Shown piece after piece: positions 48,166 to 57,044 of a DNA stretch of 64,000 bases. The number at the start of each line of letters is the position of its first letter. Within the stretch, counting starts at the first letter, position 1. The notes under the pieces are model-generated. The model was not told the origin of the DNA, searched no databases, and worked only from the letters and a program-made list of their open reading frames with translations. The stretch comes from Methanobacteriota archaeon (lineage in GTDB: Archaea > Methanobacteriota > Methanobacteria > Methanobacteriales > Methanobacteriaceae): positions 448,001 through 512,000 of the forward strand of contig CAWBCJ010000029.1 in assembly GCA_963787255.1 (NCBI GenBank), written 5' to 3'. Made by a program: the position numbers and the translations under genes.

Positions 48166-48942
48166 TTATTTTGTAATATAATTTTTAAGCGCCCCAATAC
48201 TCTCTAGTTCAACTTCAACAGTATTTCCAACGTTCATTGGCCCAACACCTGGAGGAGTTCCAGTTGCAATCACATCACCTGGCTTAAGAGTCATTATGTT
48301 TGATATAAATTCTACAAGCTCGTAAACATCAAATATCATGTTTTTAGTGTTTGAATTTTGTTTTATTTCACCATTGAGTTTTAGTGAGATTTTTTGATTC
48401 ATTGGATTCAATTCTGTTTCGATGCAGGGTCCTATGGGTGCAAAAGTGTCAAAACTTTTAGCTCGTGTCCACTGTCCGTCTTTTTGCTGTAAATCCCTTG
48501 CTGTAACGTCGTTAAAAACAGTATAACCACCTATAAATTCATTAGCGTCCTGTTCCTTTACTTTTTTTGCTTCTTTTGAAATAACGATTCCAATTTCTGC
48601 TTCATAATCCAGCTGTTTAGAAGAATTGGGATAAATAATATTATTTAAATGCCCGATCACTGCTGTTGGGGGTTTTAAAAAAATAATTGGCTCTTCTGGA
48701 ATGTCCATATTAAGTTCTTTCGCATGGTCTACATAATTTAATCCAACACAAACTATTTTGGATGGTAAAACTGGAGATTCTATTTTAATATCTTCAATTT
48801 TATAAACTGAATCTTTTTTGTATTTTTTAATAGATAATGAGTTAATTGCTTCTAAAGTTGAACATGAAAGCTCTGTTACTCTATTATTTTCTAATAATCC
48901 TGTTTTTTCTTTTCCATCCTTCCTAAATTGTATAATTTTCAT
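48166..48942 (-). CDS. Fumarylacetoacetate hydrolase family protein
   Basis: CVGLNYVDH, FLKP, DYEAE, NDVTARD, KSFDTFAP, TGTPPGVG. Confidence 0.95.
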   Translation of the reverse strand: MKIIQFRKDGKEKTGLLENNRVTELSCSTLEAINSLSIKKYKKDSVYKIEDIKIESPVLPSKIVCVGLNYVDHAKELNMDIPEEPIIFLKPPTAVIGHLNNIIYPNSSKQLDYEAEIGIVISKEAKKVKEQDANEFIGGYTVFNDVTARDLQQKDGQWTRAKSFDTFAPIGPCIETELNPMNQKISLKLNGEIKQNSNTKNMIFDVYELVEFISNIMTLKPGDVIATGTPPGVGPMNVGNTVEVELESIGALKNYITK

Positions 48943-49071: not shown

Positions 49072-49371
49072 TTAGTAATCATAAGTTATTTTTAATAGTA
49101 TGGCAAGCGCTATAAGCTCGATAATTCCACCTATGTAAACGGGCCTACCTATTAAAGCCTCGCTGTCAACGATTAAAAAGCCGATGGTGAAAATACTTTT
49201 AATTAAAAGGAGTAAAGCAAATATTATAAGTCCTACTGTAAATCCAATCTTTATTTGCCTGTAACTTTTAGTATAAAGGTACAGTAGTCCTGTTAAAAGT
49301 CCAATATTTGCAATTTCTATAATTACTGCTGCAACTTTGATTCCAGTGTATCCGAATATTTCTACTGTCAT
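49072..49371 (-). CDS. Small 3-TM membrane protein, paralog 1
   Basis: ANIGLL..LLYLY.KSYRQIK..FTVGL..F..; 85/99 aa identical to 51572..51871. Confidence 0.85.
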   Translation of the reverse strand: MTVEIFGYTGIKVAAVIIEIANIGLLTGLLYLYTKSYRQIKIGFTVGLIIFALLLLIKSIFTIGFLIVDSEALIGRPVYIGGIIELIALAILLKITYDY

Positions 49372-49458
49372 TTTAGACCCTTCATTTTATAATTCCTTAA
49401 AAAGTAAGAAAGGAAATTTTTAGTTCTTTTGAATTATCAATCATGATTGAGTTTCATT

Positions 49459-49515
49459 TTTGAAGATTTCCCGCCTAAAAAAAGATAAATGGAGGATTCC
49501 CGCCCAATCTTCAAA
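49459..49515. other. Structured element 3' of ABC ATPase, sharing a 23-nt motif with 52827-52849
   Basis: Stem TTTGAAGATT/AATCTTCAAA enclosing two TTCCCGCC copies and TAAATGGAGG. Confidence 0.6.
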
Positions 49516-49523
49516 GTATTAAG

Positions 49524-50219
49524 TCAAGATGTGATATTATTCGTTTTTTCTTCTTTAATTTTCCCATCAAGCACGGTTATGATTTTTTCAGCCATGTTAG
49601 CCACGTATGGTTCGTGTGTTACCATTACAAGGGTTACATTCTCTTTTTTGTGGAGGTCTTTAAGAAGATTTAATATTAAATCTCCTGTTTTTGAATCTAA
49701 GGCCCCCGTTGGTTCGTCGGCTAAAATAATAGAGGGATGATTCACTAAAGCTCTCGCAATGGCTACTCGTTGTCTCTGTCCACCAGAAAGCTTGGTTGGT
49801 CTCTGGTTAATTTTATCTTCAAGCCCCACTGATTTTAAAAGTTCCAAAGCTCTTTCTTCCATTTTTTTACCTGAAATAGAAGTTTCAAGCATTGGAATCT
49901 CCACATTTTCAAGCACGCTGAGATTGGGAATCAAATTATGAAGCTGGAAAACAAATCCAATTTCACCGGACCTGAACCCACTCAAATCCTTTTTATACAT
50001 CAGATCAATGCCTGCAACGTTTATAGAACCTTCATCTCCTTTATCCAGTGCTCCAATCATGTTCAGGAGGGTTGATTTCCCAGAACCGGAAGGTCCAATT
50101 ATGGAAACAAATTCCCCTTTTTTAATTTCAAGATCGATGCCGTTTAATGCATTAATTTTGCCATTGTCGTAACTTTTTTTGAGATCCTTTATTTCAATGA
50201 TATTTTCCTTATTATTCAT
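49524..50219 (-). CDS. ABC transporter ATP-binding protein (LolD/MacB type)
   Basis: GPSGSGKST, IGFVFQ, LSGGQRQRVAIARAL, ADEPTGALD, VTH. Confidence 0.95.
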   Translation of the reverse strand: MNNKENIIEIKDLKKSYDNGKINALNGIDLEIKKGEFVSIIGPSGSGKSTLLNMIGALDKGDEGSINVAGIDLMYKKDLSGFRSGEIGFVFQLHNLIPNLSVLENVEIPMLETSISGKKMEERALELLKSVGLEDKINQRPTKLSGGQRQRVAIARALVNHPSIILADEPTGALDSKTGDLILNLLKDLHKKENVTLVMVTHEPYVANMAEKIITVLDGKIKEEKTNNITS

Positions 50220-51354
50220 AGCGCAACGCCTCCGTTGGTGCTAGTCTGCTGGCCCTGTAGGCAGGATAAATTCCACCAATCATTCCAACAAGGAAAGCTA
50301 TTCCCAAAGCCCTGATGAAGAGTTCAAGTGAGTATGCAGGTTCAATTATACCCTCTGTTGATGGTGTAAGGGATAATAGAACTTCAACACCGACTACACC
50401 TACTACAATACCTACTACACCCGCCATTAAGGTGAGTACAATGGATTCACCAAGTATCATTCCAAGTATTCTCCTACTTCTCCAACCGACAGCTTTTAAG
50501 ACCCCAATTTCACGAGTTCTCTCATAAACTGACATTATCATGGTATTTATGACTCCTACTCCTCCAATAACTATCGCCAGGAGTGAAATAGCCCATGTAG
50601 CTGTATCTATGAAGCTCAAGCCCTGATTTATTCTTCCCATTTGATCAGCAGCAGAAGTTGTGGATAATTCATCAGGATATGCATCTTCAATTGCATTACC
50701 TACTTCAGTAGCATTTGCATTATCATTTATCTTTACAGCTATAGTACTGACTTCTTCTTCGCTATCAGTTAAATTCTGAAGTTTATTTAATGAAATGTAA
50801 GCTCCAGCGTCTGTTATGAAGTTTCCTGTTTCAAATGTTCCAGTAATTTTGAAATCCTTATTGAAAATGGTGATTGTATCTCCAACAGTTTTATTAAGGG
50901 TTTGGGCGGCTGTTTTACCTATAATTATTTCATTTGCATCTCCACTCGAGAAAACAGTTCCGTTGATACTGTCTACTCCAACGAGATTAAGCTTACTGCT
51001 ATCTATACCGCTTACGGTAAATCCACCGGGCCCAAAGCTGGAGCTCGAGCCCTCTTCCAGACGAACACTTGTTCTTAAAATACCGGCTGTATCTTTGATA
51101 CCGCTTATGTTTTTGATATCTGTTACGCGAGACTCATCAATACTTCCTGATAAAAAACCGTCTGTACCTTCTTGAATTACAGTAATTTCAGCACCTCCTG
51201 ATTTAAGAGTGCTCTCTGTGGATGCTTTAAGTCCCCCGGTAATGAGACCTAAAGCTACAATGGTAGCAATTCCAATTGCAATTCCAATAATTGCAAGTGA
51301 ACTTCTTGTTTTATTTCTAAATGGATTTTTTACGATTAATCCTAGGTAATTCAT
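50212..51354 (-). CDS. ABC transporter permease (FtsX/MacB-like, 4 TM with large extracellular domain)
   Basis: RNKTRSSL, NTMIMSVYERTREIGVLKAVG, PAYRASRLAPTEALRYE. Confidence 0.95.
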   Translation of the reverse strand: MNYLGLIVKNPFRNKTRSSLAIIGIAIGIATIVALGLITGGLKASTESTLKSGGAEITVIQEGTDGFLSGSIDESRVTDIKNISGIKDTAGILRTSVRLEEGSSSSFGPGGFTVSGIDSSKLNLVGVDSINGTVFSSGDANEIIIGKTAAQTLNKTVGDTITIFNKDFKITGTFETGNFITDAGAYISLNKLQNLTDSEEEVSTIAVKINDNANATEVGNAIEDAYPDELSTTSAADQMGRINQGLSFIDTATWAISLLAIVIGGVGVINTMIMSVYERTREIGVLKAVGWRSRRILGMILGESIVLTLMAGVVGIVVGVVGVEVLLSLTPSTEGIIEPAYSLELFIRALGIAFLVGMIGGIYPAYRASRLAPTEALRYE

Positions 51355-51420
51355 ATTATGATTACTCCTTTTTCAAATGAATTTTAATTAGCATAAGTCT
51401 TACCATTCTTTAATAAAGAA

Positions 51421-51488
51421 TATTTAAGTAATTATTTCAAAATTCATTGCAAATTTGTTACAAATTACATGCAAATTGTATCCAATTA
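51421..51488 (-). promoter_or_regulatory. TATA box with four 11-bp-phased upstream boxes
   Basis: + strand TATTTAAGTAATTATT at 51421 (TTAAATA on minus); CAA(A)TT at 51450, 51461, 51472, 51483. Confidence 0.75.
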
Positions 51489-51571
51489 CGGGAAAAAAGC
51501 ATTGAAAATCAAAAATATATAGATTTAATGGTCCAATTTTAAAAGAAGAATAAAAAAAGATTTAAAAGATT

Positions 51572-51871
51572 TCAGTAATCCCATGTTATCTTTAAAAGTA
51601 TAGTGAGCGCTATAAATTCGATAATTCCACCTATGTAGATGGGCCGGCCTATTAATAAATCACTGTCCACTATTAAAAAAGCGATGGTGGAAATACTTTT
51701 GATTAAAAGCATTAGAGCAAATAAAATTAATCCTACTGTAAATCCAATTTTTATCTGTCTATAACTTTTTGTATAAAGATAGAGTAGTCCAGTTAATAGT
51801 CCTATATTTGCAATTTCTATGATAATAGCTGCAATTTTAATTCCTGTGTATCCAAATAGTTCTAAGGTCAT
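51572..51871 (-). CDS. Small 3-TM membrane protein, paralog 2
   Basis: 12 nt downstream of wHTH gene; near-identical to 49072..49371. Confidence 0.85.
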   Translation of the reverse strand: MTLELFGYTGIKIAAIIIEIANIGLLTGLLYLYTKSYRQIKIGFTVGLILFALMLLIKSISTIAFLIVDSDLLIGRPIYIGGIIEFIALTILLKITWDY

Positions 51872-51883
51872 TTTAATCCCTAT

Positions 51884-52168
51884 TTAATTACTTTTCTTAA
51901 CCTGTTTCCATATAATTTCAAAATCATCGTAGTTTTCTTCCATGCTCTCTGAGAGAAAATACATTTTACCATATTTTTCTCCAGCGGATTTAACCACATC
52001 ACTATCTTCTAGAATCTTAATATGGTGTCTAATAGTCCTGTAATTCACATTTAACTCTTCTGCAAGCTGATGTGCATTGTAAGGCCGTTCATTTAATTTT
52101 TTAATGATTCTGGCACGATTCACGCCACCCCTTGTACCAAGGATCAGCCACCACAGCACTTTTTTCAT
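51884..52168 (-). CDS. Winged helix-turn-helix (ArsR-like) regulator, LWWL..GTRGG.NR subfamily, paralog 1
   Basis: [29 protein letters not shown]; KYGKMYFLS wing; no Cys metal sites. Confidence 0.9.
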   Translation of the reverse strand: MKKVLWWLILGTRGGVNRARIIKKLNERPYNAHQLAEELNVNYRTIRHHIKILEDSDVVKSAGEKYGKMYFLSESMEENYDDFEIIWKQVKKSN

Positions 52169-52298
52169 AGGTTATCACTATCTAAATTAATAACATGATT
52201 TTAAGACTTCAAATAATTCTTTTTAATTATATTCTTAATAAGAATTGTATAATGTTATATTTAGATTTAATTTAAAAAAAATAGAAAAATAACTAAAA

Positions 52299-52679
52299 TT
52301 AATTTTTCATTGATTCAGTTTTTATAAGTGAACCTAAAACTCCTCCAACTACTCCCATGACTATTTCAAGCCCGATATAAAGAACTACGGTACTTATTAT
52401 GCTGCCCATATATTCGCCATATCCCTGGAAGTACATCATAACTACTAATAAGGCCGAAACTATTAATCCACCTATCAATCCTAACAATACTCCATTAATA
52501 GCCCCTTTTTTTATATTACTGCCCACCATGAATCCTAACGCAATCCCTGCGAGTATAAATGATGGTAAAAGTATGCTCTGACCTGAAATAATGTCTGAAA
52601 CAATGTAAAGAGTTACTGCGATGATAATTCCAATTATCAATGGTCTCCATTTAATTAATTCTTTAATCATGCTTTCCAC
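52299..52679 (-). CDS. DUF5518-like 4-TM Gly-rich membrane protein
   Basis: KWRPLIIG, GFMVG..KKGAING...G.IGG, GVVGGVLG pattern. Confidence 0.75.
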   Translation of the reverse strand: MESMIKELIKWRPLIIGIIIAVTLYIVSDIISGQSILLPSFILAGIALGFMVGSNIKKGAINGVLLGLIGGLIVSALLVVMMYFQGYGEYMGSIISTVVLYIGLEIVMGVVGGVLGSLIKTESMKN

Positions 52680-52718
52680 GTCCTGATTTTAAATTTTTTC
52701 ATAATATAGTATAACCTC

Positions 52719-53054
52719 AAAAAAAAGAATAGGGGATTTATAGGAGGCATAAAAATCCCCAATATCATTTCAGAGGTGAAATGAATGTTATTGTATATGT
52801 ATATCTCCAAATAAGCTCAAAAAGACTAAATGGAGGTATCCCACCCAATTTGATAATTTCTCCTATCAAAAAAAGGGGGAAAGAGGATTTTTACCTCAGA
52901 TAGGAGAGAATTAAGCGACATATTAATGAATCTTGTAGAGGCCCACCCACTCTACAATTGAAGATATTTTTTTTAGTTTTTTAAGATATCACTCCAAATA
53001 ACCTCTTGATTTATTTTTAAATAGATTTTAATTTCTAACTACCCTGAATTCCAT
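52719..53054 (-). ncRNA. Candidate ~340-nt multi-hairpin regulatory RNA or structured leader (strand inferred from promoter)
   Basis: Five stem-loops (52732-52760, 52765-52784, 52801-52839, 52855-52912, 52933-52957); last hairpin followed by U8 on minus strand; conserved promoter at 53075. Confidence 0.6.
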
Positions 53055-53074
53055 GTATTAAAGTTAATAAACTG

Positions 53075-53140
53075 TATTTAAGTAATTATTCCAGAGTTTT
53101 TCCCAAATCAATACCAATTATACCCAAATCTATACCAAGT
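53075..53140 (-). promoter_or_regulatory. TATA box with four phased upstream boxes
   Basis: Same 16-mer TATTTAAGTAATTATT as at 51421; CAA boxes at 53104, 53115, 53125, 53136, the first at the identical 29-bp offset. Confidence 0.75.
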
Positions 53141-53378
53141 CCTAACACGGCCATAATTTATTTATAAAAACGAGAATTCTTCCTTAATACAACTATTTTG
53201 ATTGTAATTAAAGATTTTTCATAAACACATCTAAGATGATTATAAGCAATATTCATTATATTTGATCCTAAAAACCACATTTATAACTTTTATAAACTTA
53301 AAAATATATTTTAACCAATTTTAAATATTAAATTACTAAATAAAATAATTATAGATTATTTTAGCTCGAAATAATCCA

Positions 53379-53421
53379 ATTTAGGAATCTTTTGGGTTAA
53401 ATTTGGGAAAAGTTTTATATC
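53379..53421 (+). promoter_or_regulatory. Phased TTT(A/G)GG boxes upstream of TTTTATAT
   Basis: ATTTAGG, TTTTGGG, ATTTGGG at 10-11 bp spacing, then TATA-like 53413-53420, upstream of GT-C-like gene. Confidence 0.65.
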
Positions 53422-53472
53422 TATTCTGGAATTTAGTTTAATACTGTAAATCAACAAAAAAAGGAAATTTCT

Positions 53473-53521
53473 CAAAAATCGGAGATTTTTGGAAGTTAGA
53501 AAAATGCAAAGCATTTTCTAA
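53473..53521. repeat. Two adjacent short palindromes with 3-nt loops (REP-like)
   Basis: CAAAAATC-GGA-GATTTTTG and TTAGAAAA(A)TGC-AAA-GCATTTTCTAA. Confidence 0.55.
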
Positions 53522-53548
53522 AATTTAAAACAATTTCAGGATGGAAAA

Positions 53549-55323
53549 ATGTCAAAAATAAGCACAAAATAAAGGAAAAATCATGGATTATAATCCTGGT
53601 TGCCATATTCATATTCTCATTTATATTGGATATGTACGTTTTAACACGTTACAATCTTTCTTATGGCCGAGACGGGCCATTTTACGACCTTCAGGTTCTA
53701 AGTATAATTCAAACAGGTTTCCCAGCCAGTAATGATCCGCCGCTTGCTTATTATTTACTTTCTCCATTTGTAATGCTTAGTGGAAACTCTTTCCTTGGTA
53801 TAAAAATTGGAATGGCGTTAATAGGATCTTTAATGGCATTTCCTGCTTATTTCCTTACTGAAATGTTTAGCAAGAAAATAGATATTGAATCTAAAGTTCC
53901 CGCGTTATTAAGTGCATTTCTCATAACAGTAAATCCATTTTATTTCAGTATGATTGGTGATTTCATGCAGAATCTTGTAGGGGCCTTCTTTTTATTACTC
54001 TTACTGTATTTTGCAGTTAAATGGTTTGAAAATACAAAGGAATGGAAAAAATATGGAATTTTAACGGTAATATTGCTTATCTGCAGCATATTCACCCACA
54101 TTTACACAGGAATACTGGCAGTAGTGTTATTTATATCATTACTGCTCTTTAACATAATTTTTAGAACCTTTAAAACAGGAAAAATGCCTGCAAGAGATTT
54201 AAAAATAGTGGGAGTAGTTGGGGTTCTAATTATTGGAGGATTGGCTGCTTTATTTGCATTATATCCAGTAATGTTTTCTAAATTCACCACAGTACTGTCC
54301 TTTGTAAATAGTTCATCTTCTGAAACTTCAAATTTAATGGGAGGGCCTAATACAAGTCCACTAATATTTTTAACAGTACCTTTCATATTAGGAATTTTAG
54401 CTACACTAAATGTACTTTATAAAGGATTAAAAGAGAAAATAGACGCTCAAAATGAAAAAATAAACAAAAAAATATTATTAGCACTGGTGTATTTGGTGAT
54501 GACTGTTGTTGTGATCGCTATTTCCACATTACCTTCAATTGATTCCCAGTATCAAGGTAGATTTATAATGCTTGCATTTGTCCCTATAGCCTTGATGGTG
54601 CCTTTAGGGCTTAAATTAATTGAAAAATGGATTTCAAATAGATATCCATCAAAAAAAGGATTGAAATTGGGAATAATCGGCATAATTGCTGTTTTATTTA
54701 TGATATCCAGTTTCTATACTGCGTCTACGACATTTTCAAGTATGGGGCCAAGTATCACCACAGATCAGTACAACGAACTTGTAAAAATTAAAGCTGATTA
54801 TTTAAATGGTAAAATAGATCCAAATGGCATAATAGTTGTAAATGACTACCATACGGGATATTGGGTCCAATATGTAACTGGAATGCATGTTGAAACAGGA
54901 AAGTACCAGTGAAATTCAGGCAAAATATCCTGATCAGACCATATATGCACTTACTTTGACAGAAAATAAACAATCAGGATTAAAAGGTAGTTTTGAATAT
55001 TCATGGAATCCATTGCTTCCCTTATTCATTTCCATTTGGAGGATTCAATATGGGATACTTCGTCAAATGGAAATCAGAATGCCTAGAATAATCCTCCTAA
55101 CCAAATTTCAAGAAATAACATGACTGCTCCGCCATCTGGTGGTTTAGGGAATAATACTCGGTTTAATAGATCAGGTTCTCACCCTCCGAATTTTGCAAAT
55201 ATGACTCAAAATAGAGGTGCTGGATCCTTACAAATGTCTGATCAAGGCTCAAATCAGTTAATAACGAATAGTGGAACACTAATTTTTAGTGCTGACAATT
55301 TAAAGATATATAAAATATCTTAA
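53549..55323 (+). CDS. GT-C fold (ArnT/PMT-like) polytopic membrane glycosyltransferase-like protein, frameshifted (near 53568, 54900, 55020)
   Basis: N-term MSKISTK/IKEKSWIIILV; GRDGPFY and DPPL in first loop; ~12 TM; QYQGRF; DYHTGYW; Gly/Asn/Pro-rich tail ending LKIYKIS. Confidence 0.65.
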
Positions 55324-55345
55324 ATTGCCCTTAATTTCTTTTTGT

Positions 55346-55778
55346 CTATTCCCAGGTAATATAGAGAAGTATGGACAATGCAATCAATTGGATTACATTA
55401 ATGGAAGATAAGGGAAATTCTTGCCGTCCTATTTCAAAGCTATGGCTTCCAGGGCCTAAAATCATGCTTAATGCTAGAAATAGTGTGGATACAGCATTTT
55501 GAAGTAGGAGAAGTGAAACAAAGACTAAAAGACCCATTGTGAATTTGGATTTTAATTGTCTGTAACTTTTCAAATAAACGTAAAGTAATGCAATTAATAG
55601 AGCAAATATTTGCAATTCCAATTATAATGGCTAAAATTGTACTTATGCCTATTATATCCCATCCATTTAGGGCTGGATTCATGCCATGTGGTGGAATTGT
55701 GCTGCCATTAGGGCTTCCTGTACCTCCTGGCCCATTATTAATGATATTTAGTCCTTTTTCCATAAATTTTTGTATCAT
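55346..55778 (-). CDS. Small membrane protein paralog 3 with Gly/Pro-rich N-terminal extension (frameshift near 55608)
   Basis: NNGPGGTGSPNGSTIPPHG..IGIANI joins LLIALLYVYLKSYRQLKSKFTMGL..ITWE, homologous to the other two copies. Confidence 0.8.
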
Positions 55779-55815
55779 TTTTTCCCTCTAATTCTTGAAC
55801 TAATTTAATGGTTAT

Positions 55816-56097
55816 TTACTTTTTCCCAATTTGTTTCCAAATTTCTAGAAATGTATCGTAATTTTCTTCCATGGCCGGCGATAAGAAGTACATTTTACCA
55901 TATTTCTCTCCGCCTGATTTAACTACGTTATTTTGTTCTAAAACTTTAATATGGTGTCTTATAGTCTTATAATCTAAATTCAGCTCTTCTGAAAGTTGAT
56001 GTGCATTATATGGTCTATCATTTAGCATTTTGATTATTTTTGCACGGTTTAATCCGCCCTTCATACCGGCAATTAACCACCACAACAACTTTTTCAT
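55816..56097 (-). CDS. Winged helix-turn-helix (ArsR-like) regulator, paralog 2
   Basis: About 68/93 aa identical to 51884..52168. Confidence 0.9.
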
Positions 56098-56183: not shown

Positions 56184-57044
56184 TTATATTATTCTTTCAA
56201 TTGGAACAACTAATATATCCCGTGCACCTATTTTTTTAAGTTCATTTACGGTATTAAACACTTCATGCTCATCTACAACGGCGTGAACTGCCACAATATC
56301 ACTATTGGATAAGACTTGAGAAACTGTAGGTCCTGTAAGTCCTGGCATTGCCTTTTTAACGTTTTCAAGAGATTCCTTGTCAACATTCATCATCACCAGT
56401 TTTTTACCCTCAGCATCAAGAACTCCTTTTATACCGGTTCTTACAGCTTCAATTTTTTCATTTTTCTCTTTAAAACTTTCTTTATTTGCAATTAGCTTTA
56501 TTGAACTTTCTAAAATGGTATCTATTATTTTAAGATGGTTCATTTTTAAAGTAGTACCTGTGCTTGTAAGGTCAGTAATTATATCTGCAACACCAATAAA
56601 TGGTGCAATTTCAGTTGATCCGCTTAATTCAACTATTTTAACGTCTAATCCTTTGTTTTTGAAGTATTTATCTGTTAAATGTGGGAATTCAGTAGCTACC
56701 ACAGCTCCGTGGTCTATATCCAAAATATTATATATTCGGGAATCTTCAGGCACTGCTAAAACAAGTTTTGCTGTTCCAAAGTTCAGATCTTCAAGAATTT
56801 CAACTTCAGCATCTTTTTCTTCGATTAAGTCGAGGCCTGTCATTCCCAGGTCTGCTGCGCCGTCTGCAACAAATTCTGGAATATCTGCGGCCCTTGTAAA
56901 CATTACACTTATTTCTTCATCATAAGTCTCTGAAAAGAGCTTTCTATTTGATGTATCTTTAATACCAATTCCTGCTTTTTCTAAGAGCTTTACTGCAGGG
57001 TTGCTTATCCTTCCTTTTGATGGAAGAGCAATTCTAAGTTGCAT
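56184..57044 (-). CDS. hisG: ATP phosphoribosyltransferase (long form)
   Basis: [31 protein letters not shown]-terminal regulatory domain. Confidence 0.97.

Follow-up and report, generated by a model that had tools for sequence, protein, structure and literature searches.

A stretch of 64,000 nucleotides (nt) from a Methanobacteriota archaeon of the family Methanobacteriaceae (GenBank assembly GCA_963787255.1, contig CAWBCJ010000029.1, positions 448001-512000; hereafter the window) contains, at 49072-56097, two copies of a conserved archaeal two-gene cassette. Each consists of a gene for a winged helix-turn-helix (wHTH) regulator with the ArsR/SmtB fold (about 94 amino acids, aa), then a gene for a small membrane protein of the DUF8036 family (about 100 aa). 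One copy, wHTH_A and TM_A, heads the sole unit of the region that is conserved among relatives: the wHTH-DUF8036 pair, an FtsX-type ATP-binding cassette (ABC) exporter with its own promoter, and a second DUF8036 gene, TM_C. The other copy is wHTH_B and TM_B. The window lies on contig 29 of the assembly (C29), and its closest public proteins are labelled Methanobacterium. A preliminary description of this region, made from the letters alone, was largely correct in what it observed, save for a frameshift, the number of promoters and a supposed structured RNA; its idea that the membrane protein is the partner of the regulator extends far beyond the window, with a mechanism that we infer.

The cassette is linked across archaea, its two genes either overlapping or separated by no more than tens of bases (the genomes counted here are related and hence are not independent samples). 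In this assembly most wHTH matches are directly followed by a DUF8036 match. Within the same family, DUF8036 occurs in 68 of 121 genomes, often in several copies, and, taking the best locus per genome, 25 of 30 have a wHTH gene as the next gene upstream, in the same orientation; the five unpaired loci comprise four copies that follow an ABC operon and one that lies 182-206 nt from a contig end. Five closed genomes, for which two match tables were compared by eye, have a wHTH gene no more than about 190 nt upstream of 25 of their 29 DUF8036 matches, and 25 of their 31 wHTH matches (E≤1e-10) are then followed by DUF8036. A sample of the phylum shows a DUF8036 match in 138 of 301 genomes. All nine genomes of a sister family of small genomes (f3), which we take to be Methanothermobacter, have exactly one such match, and in the eight loci read a wHTH gene always precedes it, in the same context. 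The pair is also present in both readable loci of Nitrososphaerota, the genes overlapping or adjacent. For haloarchaea, 19 plasmid records came up in a tblastn search with wHTH_A (39-55% identity), and at all three megaplasmid loci opened a gene for a small hypothetical membrane protein overlaps and follows the wHTH gene; two of these three downstream proteins, compared with a DUF8036 profile, gave hhalign probabilities of 97.6% and 96.4%. The haloarchaeal partners were reached through the wHTH, as tblastn of the plasmids with TM_A returned no match. The preliminary description had proposed conserved linkage across archaea as a check on its idea, and the idea passes it strongly: pairing that spans no fewer than three phylum-level lineages strongly indicates that the two genes function together.

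The cassette is often present many times over: 10-14 matches were counted in this assembly, and as many as 9-11 in those relatives that were searched. The count for this assembly is inflated by three contigs (C16, C20 and C21) that reproduce loci of C29 and C10 in syntenic order at 87-97% identity, and that may be co-assembled strains or recent segmental duplications; the contamination rating of the assembly is 4.57%. The matching loci on the large contigs are C10:1-6300, C29:1-5000 and C29:220800-226200, and C20 bridges the starts of C10 and C29.

The two regulators of the window are 74% identical over 92 aa (about 73% had been estimated), and the recognition helix of wHTH_A reads NYRTIRHHIK. 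With 41.8 and 41.5 bits against the Pfam HTH_5 cut-off of 22 they belong to the ArsR/SmtB family, and the AlphaFold2 model of wHTH_A (predicted local distance difference test score, pLDDT, 92.9) has the complete ArsR/SmtB topology: helices alpha1 to alpha4, a beta-hairpin and alpha5. Foldseek against the PDB gave CzrA, SmtB, HlyU and SqrR as the best matches of this model (TM-score 0.66-0.71), and the closest solved structure by sequence is 2p4w, deposited as an ArsR-family regulator. The wHTH shares with those four repressors both HTH_5 and the order helix-helix-helix-helix-hairpin-helix, and differs from them in being partnered with a membrane protein. Characterized ArsR/SmtB members are mostly de-repressible repressors; nothing supports the earlier suggestion that the wHTH is an activator. 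Known sensors of the family hold their ligands at Cys/His sites in alpha3N and alpha5. Unlike the metal sensors among them, both wHTH sequences lack cysteine, there is no histidine-rich site or histidine pair in alpha5, and the NCBIfam metalloregulator model NF033788 gives 30 bits against a cut-off of 55, which places the wHTH outside the metal and persulfide sensors. Since the protein has no domain beyond the ArsR/SmtB fold and no cysteine, sensing by a partner is plausible. The preliminary description had likened such a partnership to an extracytoplasmic function (ECF) sigma factor with its anti-sigma factor; neither family appears among the Pfam and NCBIfam matches of the ten proteins of the region, and the likeness would be one of logic only.

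The membrane protein is a member of DUF8036 according to precomputed annotation: Pfam assigns PF26119 to a protein identical to TM_A and to all 120 relatives listed, and the nearest Atlas clusters of TM_A are named DUF8036 (scores 0.90-0.93). Pfam and NCBIfam scans with a Pfam copy that lacks PF26119 gave no match for it. A profile search found 449 clusters (50% identity) at E≤0.001, of which the 150 listed span 71-166 aa, and members are labelled Methanobacterium, Thermoplasmata and Nitrososphaerota. The proteins of the window have in common the motif ANI..LL..LLY.Y.KSYRQ.K..FT.GL, as first described, and the third copy that had been noticed at the end of the ABC operon was confirmed as TM_C, 86% identical to TM_A. 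The AlphaFold2 model of TM_A consists of three long helices (pLDDT 84.7). Over 76 DUF8036 sequences, lysine plus arginine averages 3.3 in loop 1, between helices 1 and 2, compared with 0.36 in the N-terminus and 0.78 in loop 2, which by the positive-inside rule predicts an N-out, C-in topology. In the same sequences the near-invariant residues Y33, Y37, K41, F44, L48 and F51 cluster around loop 1, and the outward-facing parts differ in length. The most conserved part of the protein is thus a predicted cytoplasmic loop. As a check for defense or phage origin, the PADLOC and PHROG families were also searched: none matches DUF8036, and the other proteins of the region gave only generic wHTH or ABC matches. 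A tree of copies in the TM_A and TM_C positions is poorly resolved (10 of 16 inner branches open); in it TM_A of the window joins the copies that follow ABC operons and not the TM_A-position copies of four relatives (support 86/79), a grouping that could reflect gene conversion between the copies flanking the ABC operon.

A regulator with a membrane partner, as the preliminary description had proposed, is the best reading of the linkage, and the conservation of loop 1 fits it. With slightly less than even confidence, we favor a mechanism in which DUF8036 would capture and release the regulator through its cytoplasmic loop, by a logic like that of SdpR and SdpI. DUF8036 would sit N-out/C-in, and its conserved basic loop (Y..xYR/KxxK-SxF) would face the cytoplasm and bind the regulator. 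A membrane or extracellular cue would then alter this binding, and with it the amount of regulator available to act at the promoter of the cassette itself and at neighboring operons, in the window that of the ABC exporter. TM_C, the DUF8036 copy that follows the exporter and has no wHTH of its own, would provide feedback on that amount. When a complex of wHTH_A and TM_A was predicted (from alignments of 37 and 76 rows, without controls), both runs scored 0.00, which speaks neither for nor against the proposal. On a larger scale, wHTH-DUF8036 might be a widespread, phosphorylation-free form of archaeal membrane signaling in which a three-helix sensor holds and releases an ArsR-fold regulator, paralogous pairs being wired to different operons (an ABC exporter, flavodoxin and dehydrogenase genes, a Cys-rich protein) and filling the role of bacterial ECF sigma/anti-sigma pairs; we consider this generalization possible and, for now, doubtful.

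The preliminary description knew of no characterized example, and SdpR/SdpI of Bacillus subtilis, in which the immunity and signaling protein SdpI keeps SdpR at the membrane, offers the same logic. According to one report (PMC2910880), the second three-transmembrane-segment (3-TMS) half of SdpI is held responsible for sequestering SdpR, an ArsR-type autorepressor; a conserved motif lies in the cytoplasmic loop that joins the first TMS of this SdpR-binding half to the second; homologues that consist of three TMSs alone exist, with N-out/C-in topology; and a MacB-type ABC system, yknWXYZ, as well as a paralogue of SdpI, also protects against the SdpC toxin. In both systems the gene for a small ArsR-type regulator lies directly before that for a membrane protein, and the predicted topology and loop conservation of DUF8036 match those of the SdpI 3-TMS unit, a likeness of design only. 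The DUF8036 loop, at about 10 residues, is far shorter than SdpI motif 2, and no toxin gene was identified near the pair. True SdpI homologues were found in 4 of 121 genomes of the phylum, and in the two loci read no wHTH gene precedes them; these proteins (222-228 aa, from two genera of Methanobacteriaceae) are preceded by a membrane protein of 117-125 aa (L076:671-1752 and L078:1459-2510).

A similar arrangement exists in Haloferax volcanii, where on pHV3 the gene for an HTH_20 regulator is separated by 1 nt from that for a 103-aa DUF7521 membrane protein; as in wHTH-DUF8036, a small wHTH gene is closely followed by a small membrane protein gene. By a locus-tag mapping that we infer, these genes are probably HVO_B0193 and HVO_B0192. 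In two reports, HVO_B0192-HVO_B0193 is co-transcribed as an mRNA of about 1,077 nt that goes up on cdrS repression (PMC8406309), and the two are the most highly up-regulated genes of a qarA deletion mutant (10.1101/2025.11.10.687552). DUF7521 (PF24365) is not detectably related to DUF8036: the two gave an hhalign probability of 0.2%, and DUF7521 has 0 matches in the genome and none in the Pfam scan at E≤0.1. The literature searched yielded no functional study of the wHTH-DUF8036 pair, and DUF7521 is merely mentioned there in passing.

The exporter headed by wHTH_A and TM_A is of the MacB (type VII) kind: its permease scores 88.3 bits with MacB_PCD and 71.3 with FtsX, and its ATPase 128.8, all above the cut-offs. 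It shares with MacB, LolCDE, FtsEX and YknYZ the MacB periplasmic core, the FtsX C-terminal domain and a LolD-like ATPase, and differs from them in being archaeal, in being flanked by DUF8036 genes and in falling below every equivalog cut-off (LolC/E, TIGR02212, 96 bits against 362.45; LolD, TIGR02211, 240 against 307.75). In seven of seven syntenic relatives the wHTH_A-TM-FtsX-ABC order is found between the same flanking genes, and the trailing DUF8036 copy is kept in six of them, missing in G115; in one of the seven, from another genus (G045), the five-gene core is all there is. About 1.3 kb separates the ABC ATPase from the trailing DUF8036 gene in two relatives (L066:2261-3672 and L067:2412-3737).

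The remaining genes of the region behave differently. The earlier account had named a DUF5518 protein and a glycosyltransferase-C-like (GT-C-like) protein along with the FtsX/LolD-type transporter, and Pfam matches were obtained for each, that of the GT-C-like protein being to PMT_2 at 30.2 bits (cut-off 26.1; model positions 2-140 of 160). Of the seven relatives, two match the GT-C-like gene over its full length in one piece, a third has it split, two have fragments of it and two lack it; three have a full-length DUF5518, which is missing or decayed in the other four; and the wHTH_B/TM_B pair is lacking from one relative and decayed in another. Gene order as in the window is unchanged in two relatives (G096 and G057). 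With these three parts missing from several relatives or decayed in them, the region is not the one self-contained module that it had been taken for: the conserved unit is only wHTH-DUF8036, FtsX-ABC and DUF8036, and the GT-C-like gene, DUF5518 and the long intergenic stretch between them are variable filler. In one relative (G107) the GT-C-like gene and DUF5518 are separated by a second FtsX-ABC operon (L065, C1, 4942-6826), whose permease and ATPase are 47% and 80% identical to those of the window; matches to the GT-C-like gene and to the first ABC ATPase come in two pieces each in G107. Inside the GT-C-like gene of the window, a match to Rfam CRISPR-DR7 (54631-54667, + strand; 32.1 bits against a gathering threshold of 37, E 0.002) is present as a single copy and is probably due to chance.

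Five ATT(T)G boxes precede FtsX at a spacing of 10-11 bp (51438-51487), and this array abuts a 16-nt core, AATAATTACTTAAATA (51421-51436), about 65 nt before the start codon. The exact core has only two copies in the window, the other at 53075-53090, both on the minus strand and each preceded by 4-5 such boxes at 10-11 bp. Three exact phased ATTTG boxes occur at a single site in the genome, which is that upstream of FtsX (shuffled sequences would give 0.2 per 1.09 Mb), and four occur nowhere in it. A count of one three-box site is unremarkable alone; what carries weight is conservation, the box/core block of FtsX being the best conserved intergenic part in eight genomes. Of the three promoters said to share phased boxes, two therefore stand, with array and core, and the third falls, as the upstream regions of the wHTH genes resemble each other and have no array. 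The gap between hisG and wHTH_B is only 36-45 nt in two relatives, and no clear operator was seen upstream of the wHTH genes of f3. Runs of T directly past TM_A suggest that the pair is transcribed separately from the exporter.

The second box array lies inside the 946-nt intergenic stretch between the GT-C-like gene and DUF5518, where a structured RNA had been suspected. There is no Rfam match at E≤1 in the intergenic regions, hairpin folding gave modest z-scores of -2.0 and -2.3, and a comparison of 4 genomes showed one conserved hairpin with one compensatory change, so a structured RNA finds no support. The stretch is instead read as promoter and terminator of a second ABC operon. In G107 the homologue of its 53075-53139 part lies directly upstream of the second FtsX-ABC operon and the homologue of the hairpin element (52780-53000) follows that operon; and the 22-nt hairpin with T-run at 52827-52848 has its sole other match in the genome, with 3 substitutions, at 49486-49507, right past the ABC stop codon. 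The stretch looks like the remains of a second ABC operon that was lost here, now serving as the leader of DUF5518.

Several results weigh against capture of the regulator by DUF8036. The SdpR model (NF033789) scores the two wHTH proteins at 31.3 and 29.8 bits, with a cut-off of 100. The SdpI model (PF13630) has no match in this genome at E≤0.01, and hhalign of the 76 DUF8036 sequences with two Methanobacteriaceae SdpI proteins gave a probability of 0.05%; by these two results DUF8036 is not a detectable homologue of SdpI. Foldseek of the three-helix model against the PDB returned no match at E≤0.001. No fused wHTH-DUF8036 protein was found among proteins of 264-2000 aa, which is weak evidence, fusions of 175-264 aa falling outside the search. 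The regions upstream of wHTH_A and wHTH_B have no box array. Gene adjacency and coupling, moreover, equally fit a plain autoregulated operon, in which the ArsR-fold protein would itself sense a ligand or condition and repress its own operon, perhaps also its neighbors, and DUF8036 would be an effector (for example, a membrane-protective or immunity protein) that sends no signal to the regulator. ArsR/SmtB proteins usually sense directly and adjoin the gene that they control, and the full fold of CzrA, SmtB, HlyU and SqrR, the tight pairing and the T-runs that suggest a transcript of the pair's own would all be expected of such an operon. It accounts less easily for a regulator that has neither cysteine nor paired alpha5 histidines and reaches 30 bits of the 55 asked by the metalloregulator model, or for a membrane protein that is most conserved in the cytoplasm and variable outside, which would be odd for an effector acting in the membrane or beyond it. 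We regard a plain operon of this kind as a real possibility, and on balance an unlikely one.

The other explanations account for part of the distribution each. DUF8036, at least in the subfamily of TM_A and TM_C, could be an accessory or regulatory subunit of the MacB-type exporter, with the wHTH regulating the operon and nothing more. Two DUF8036 copies, 86% identical, flank FtsX-ABC here and flank it likewise in six of seven relatives; contig C26 carries another FtsX-ABC-TM unit, and C27 one of the order FtsX-ABC-wHTH-TM; and at 11 of the 30 family loci a close FtsX/ABC homologue is no more than 1.5 kb away. At the other 19 there is none so near, the pairs examined in f3, Nitrososphaerota and haloarchaea have no such ABC genes adjoining, and the operon of G115 does without the trailing copy, all of which makes a subunit improbable. 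A selfish or addiction cassette, made up of a regulator or antitoxin and a small membrane toxin, would multiply and decay, and the copy numbers, the frameshifts in several copies and the haloarchaeal pairs on megaplasmids (one near a transposase gene, another near a MazF pair) have that appearance; we think it very improbable, given that the membrane protein is in no PADLOC or PHROG family, that f3 keeps a single copy in the same context in eight of eight genomes, and that part of the copy count here comes from small contigs, 87-97% identical to others, that are possibly co-assembled strains. Hardly any more credible is the integrated envelope module of the preliminary description, with the wHTH as activator and the GT-C-like enzyme, DUF5518 and structured RNA co-regulated from three promoters. 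The box-array promoter does occur twice, its second copy facing DUF5518, and G096 and G057 have the same gene order, but the GT-C-like gene is broken, truncated or absent in five of seven relatives, DUF5518 is missing or decayed in four of seven, G045 has the core only, the RNA belongs to no Rfam family and the exact promoter core is present only twice.

A DUF8036 gene directly after each wHTH gene, as first described, is found intact after wHTH_A; the motif is present at both places, and TM_B is frameshifted in this assembly. The TM_B frame that starts at 55778 ends in ...GIANI and continues with unrelated residues, and a second frame (55621-55346) holds the rest of the motif, ...LLIALLYVYLKSYRQ. 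Five relatives of the same genus have an uninterrupted TM_B ORF (open reading frame) that reads GIANICLL..., and metagenome contigs of three of the four runs compared have one base fewer at ~55602. These contigs are about 97% identical to the window and hence come from relatives and not from the same genome. The extra base at ~55602 is either an assembly error or a very recent lesion.

The region is bounded by a fumarylacetoacetate-hydrolase gene (48166-48942) on one side and hisG (56184-57044) on the other, and every gene between them is on the minus strand except the GT-C-like gene (+). All ORF coordinates are as first described (Table 1).

Table 1. Genes and putative regulatory elements of the region, in window coordinates, listed from the hisG side.
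Feature	Position	Strand	Evidence
wHTH_B, ArsR/SmtB-type regulator, 93 aa	55816-56097	-	HTH_5 1.2e-10
TM_B, DUF8036 paralogue with N-terminal extension, broken by one extra base at ~55602	55346-55778	-	
GT-C-like membrane protein, variable neighbor	53626-54912	+	PMT_2 6.4e-7
Second box-array promoter copy (boxes and 16-nt core), facing the hairpin element and DUF5518	53075-53139	-	
Conserved intergenic hairpin element, including terminator-like hairpin and T-run at 52827-52848	52780-53000	-	
DUF5518 membrane protein, variable neighbor	52299-52679	-	DUF5518 1.6e-16
wHTH_A, ArsR/SmtB-fold regulator, 94 aa	51884-52168	-	HTH_5 9.6e-11; model pLDDT 92.9
TM_A, DUF8036 three-helix membrane protein, 99 aa	51572-51871	-	PF26119 (precomputed); model pLDDT 84.7
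FtsX-operon promoter region, boxes and core	51421-51487	-	sequence; kept in 8 genomes
MacB/FtsX-type ABC permease, 380 aa	50212-51354	-	MacB_PCD 1.1e-24, FtsX 9.2e-20
ABC ATPase, LolD/MacB-like, 231 aa	49524-50219	-	ABC_tran 2.9e-37
Terminator-like hairpin and T-run directly past the ABC stop codon	49486-49507	-	3 substitutions relative to the 52827-52848 copy
TM_C, unpaired DUF8036 copy behind the ABC operon	49072-49371	-	86% identical to TM_A

Elsewhere the pair is found in other settings: after an FtsX-ABC operon (contig C27; loci L030, L033, L037 and L050), beside flavodoxin, Fe-S and dehydrogenase genes, and behind a small membrane protein and a Cys-rich protein, neither of them in Pfam (L053 and L056, the two f3 loci whose ORFs were read). 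In this last arrangement a membrane protein of about 105 aa and a Cys-rich protein of 224-275 aa, with the motif CPYGL.NDPYPGQC...D.NGDGICD, are encoded upstream of one subfamily of pairs; it is common to L056:1492-2477, L053:1471-2510 and, in this assembly, C20:3738-4960 and C21:2122-3251. Convergent to one copy of the pair on C20 is the gene for a membrane-anchored protein with a forkhead-associated (FHA) domain (FHA 7e-13; C20:5926-6492, L008:1987-2553, minus strand), and C10 and the first part of C29 hold similar genes. In a closed genome from a different genus (G081, C1:1741000-1751000), a 10-kb cluster contains three wHTH and four DUF8036 genes, whose spacing would fit two ABC operons in between.

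Few routes from a membrane signal to transcription have been described in archaea, and the wHTH-DUF8036 pair is a practical candidate for one: it is small, it is linked in Methanobacteria, Nitrososphaerota and haloarchaea, and many Methanobacteriaceae have it in multiple copies. As homologous pairs are present in haloarchaea and in f3, the question may suit organisms with genetic tools. If the membrane protein does control the regulator, the pair would be a common archaeal signaling device, and it would help to find the cues that act on the adjacent MacB-type exporters.

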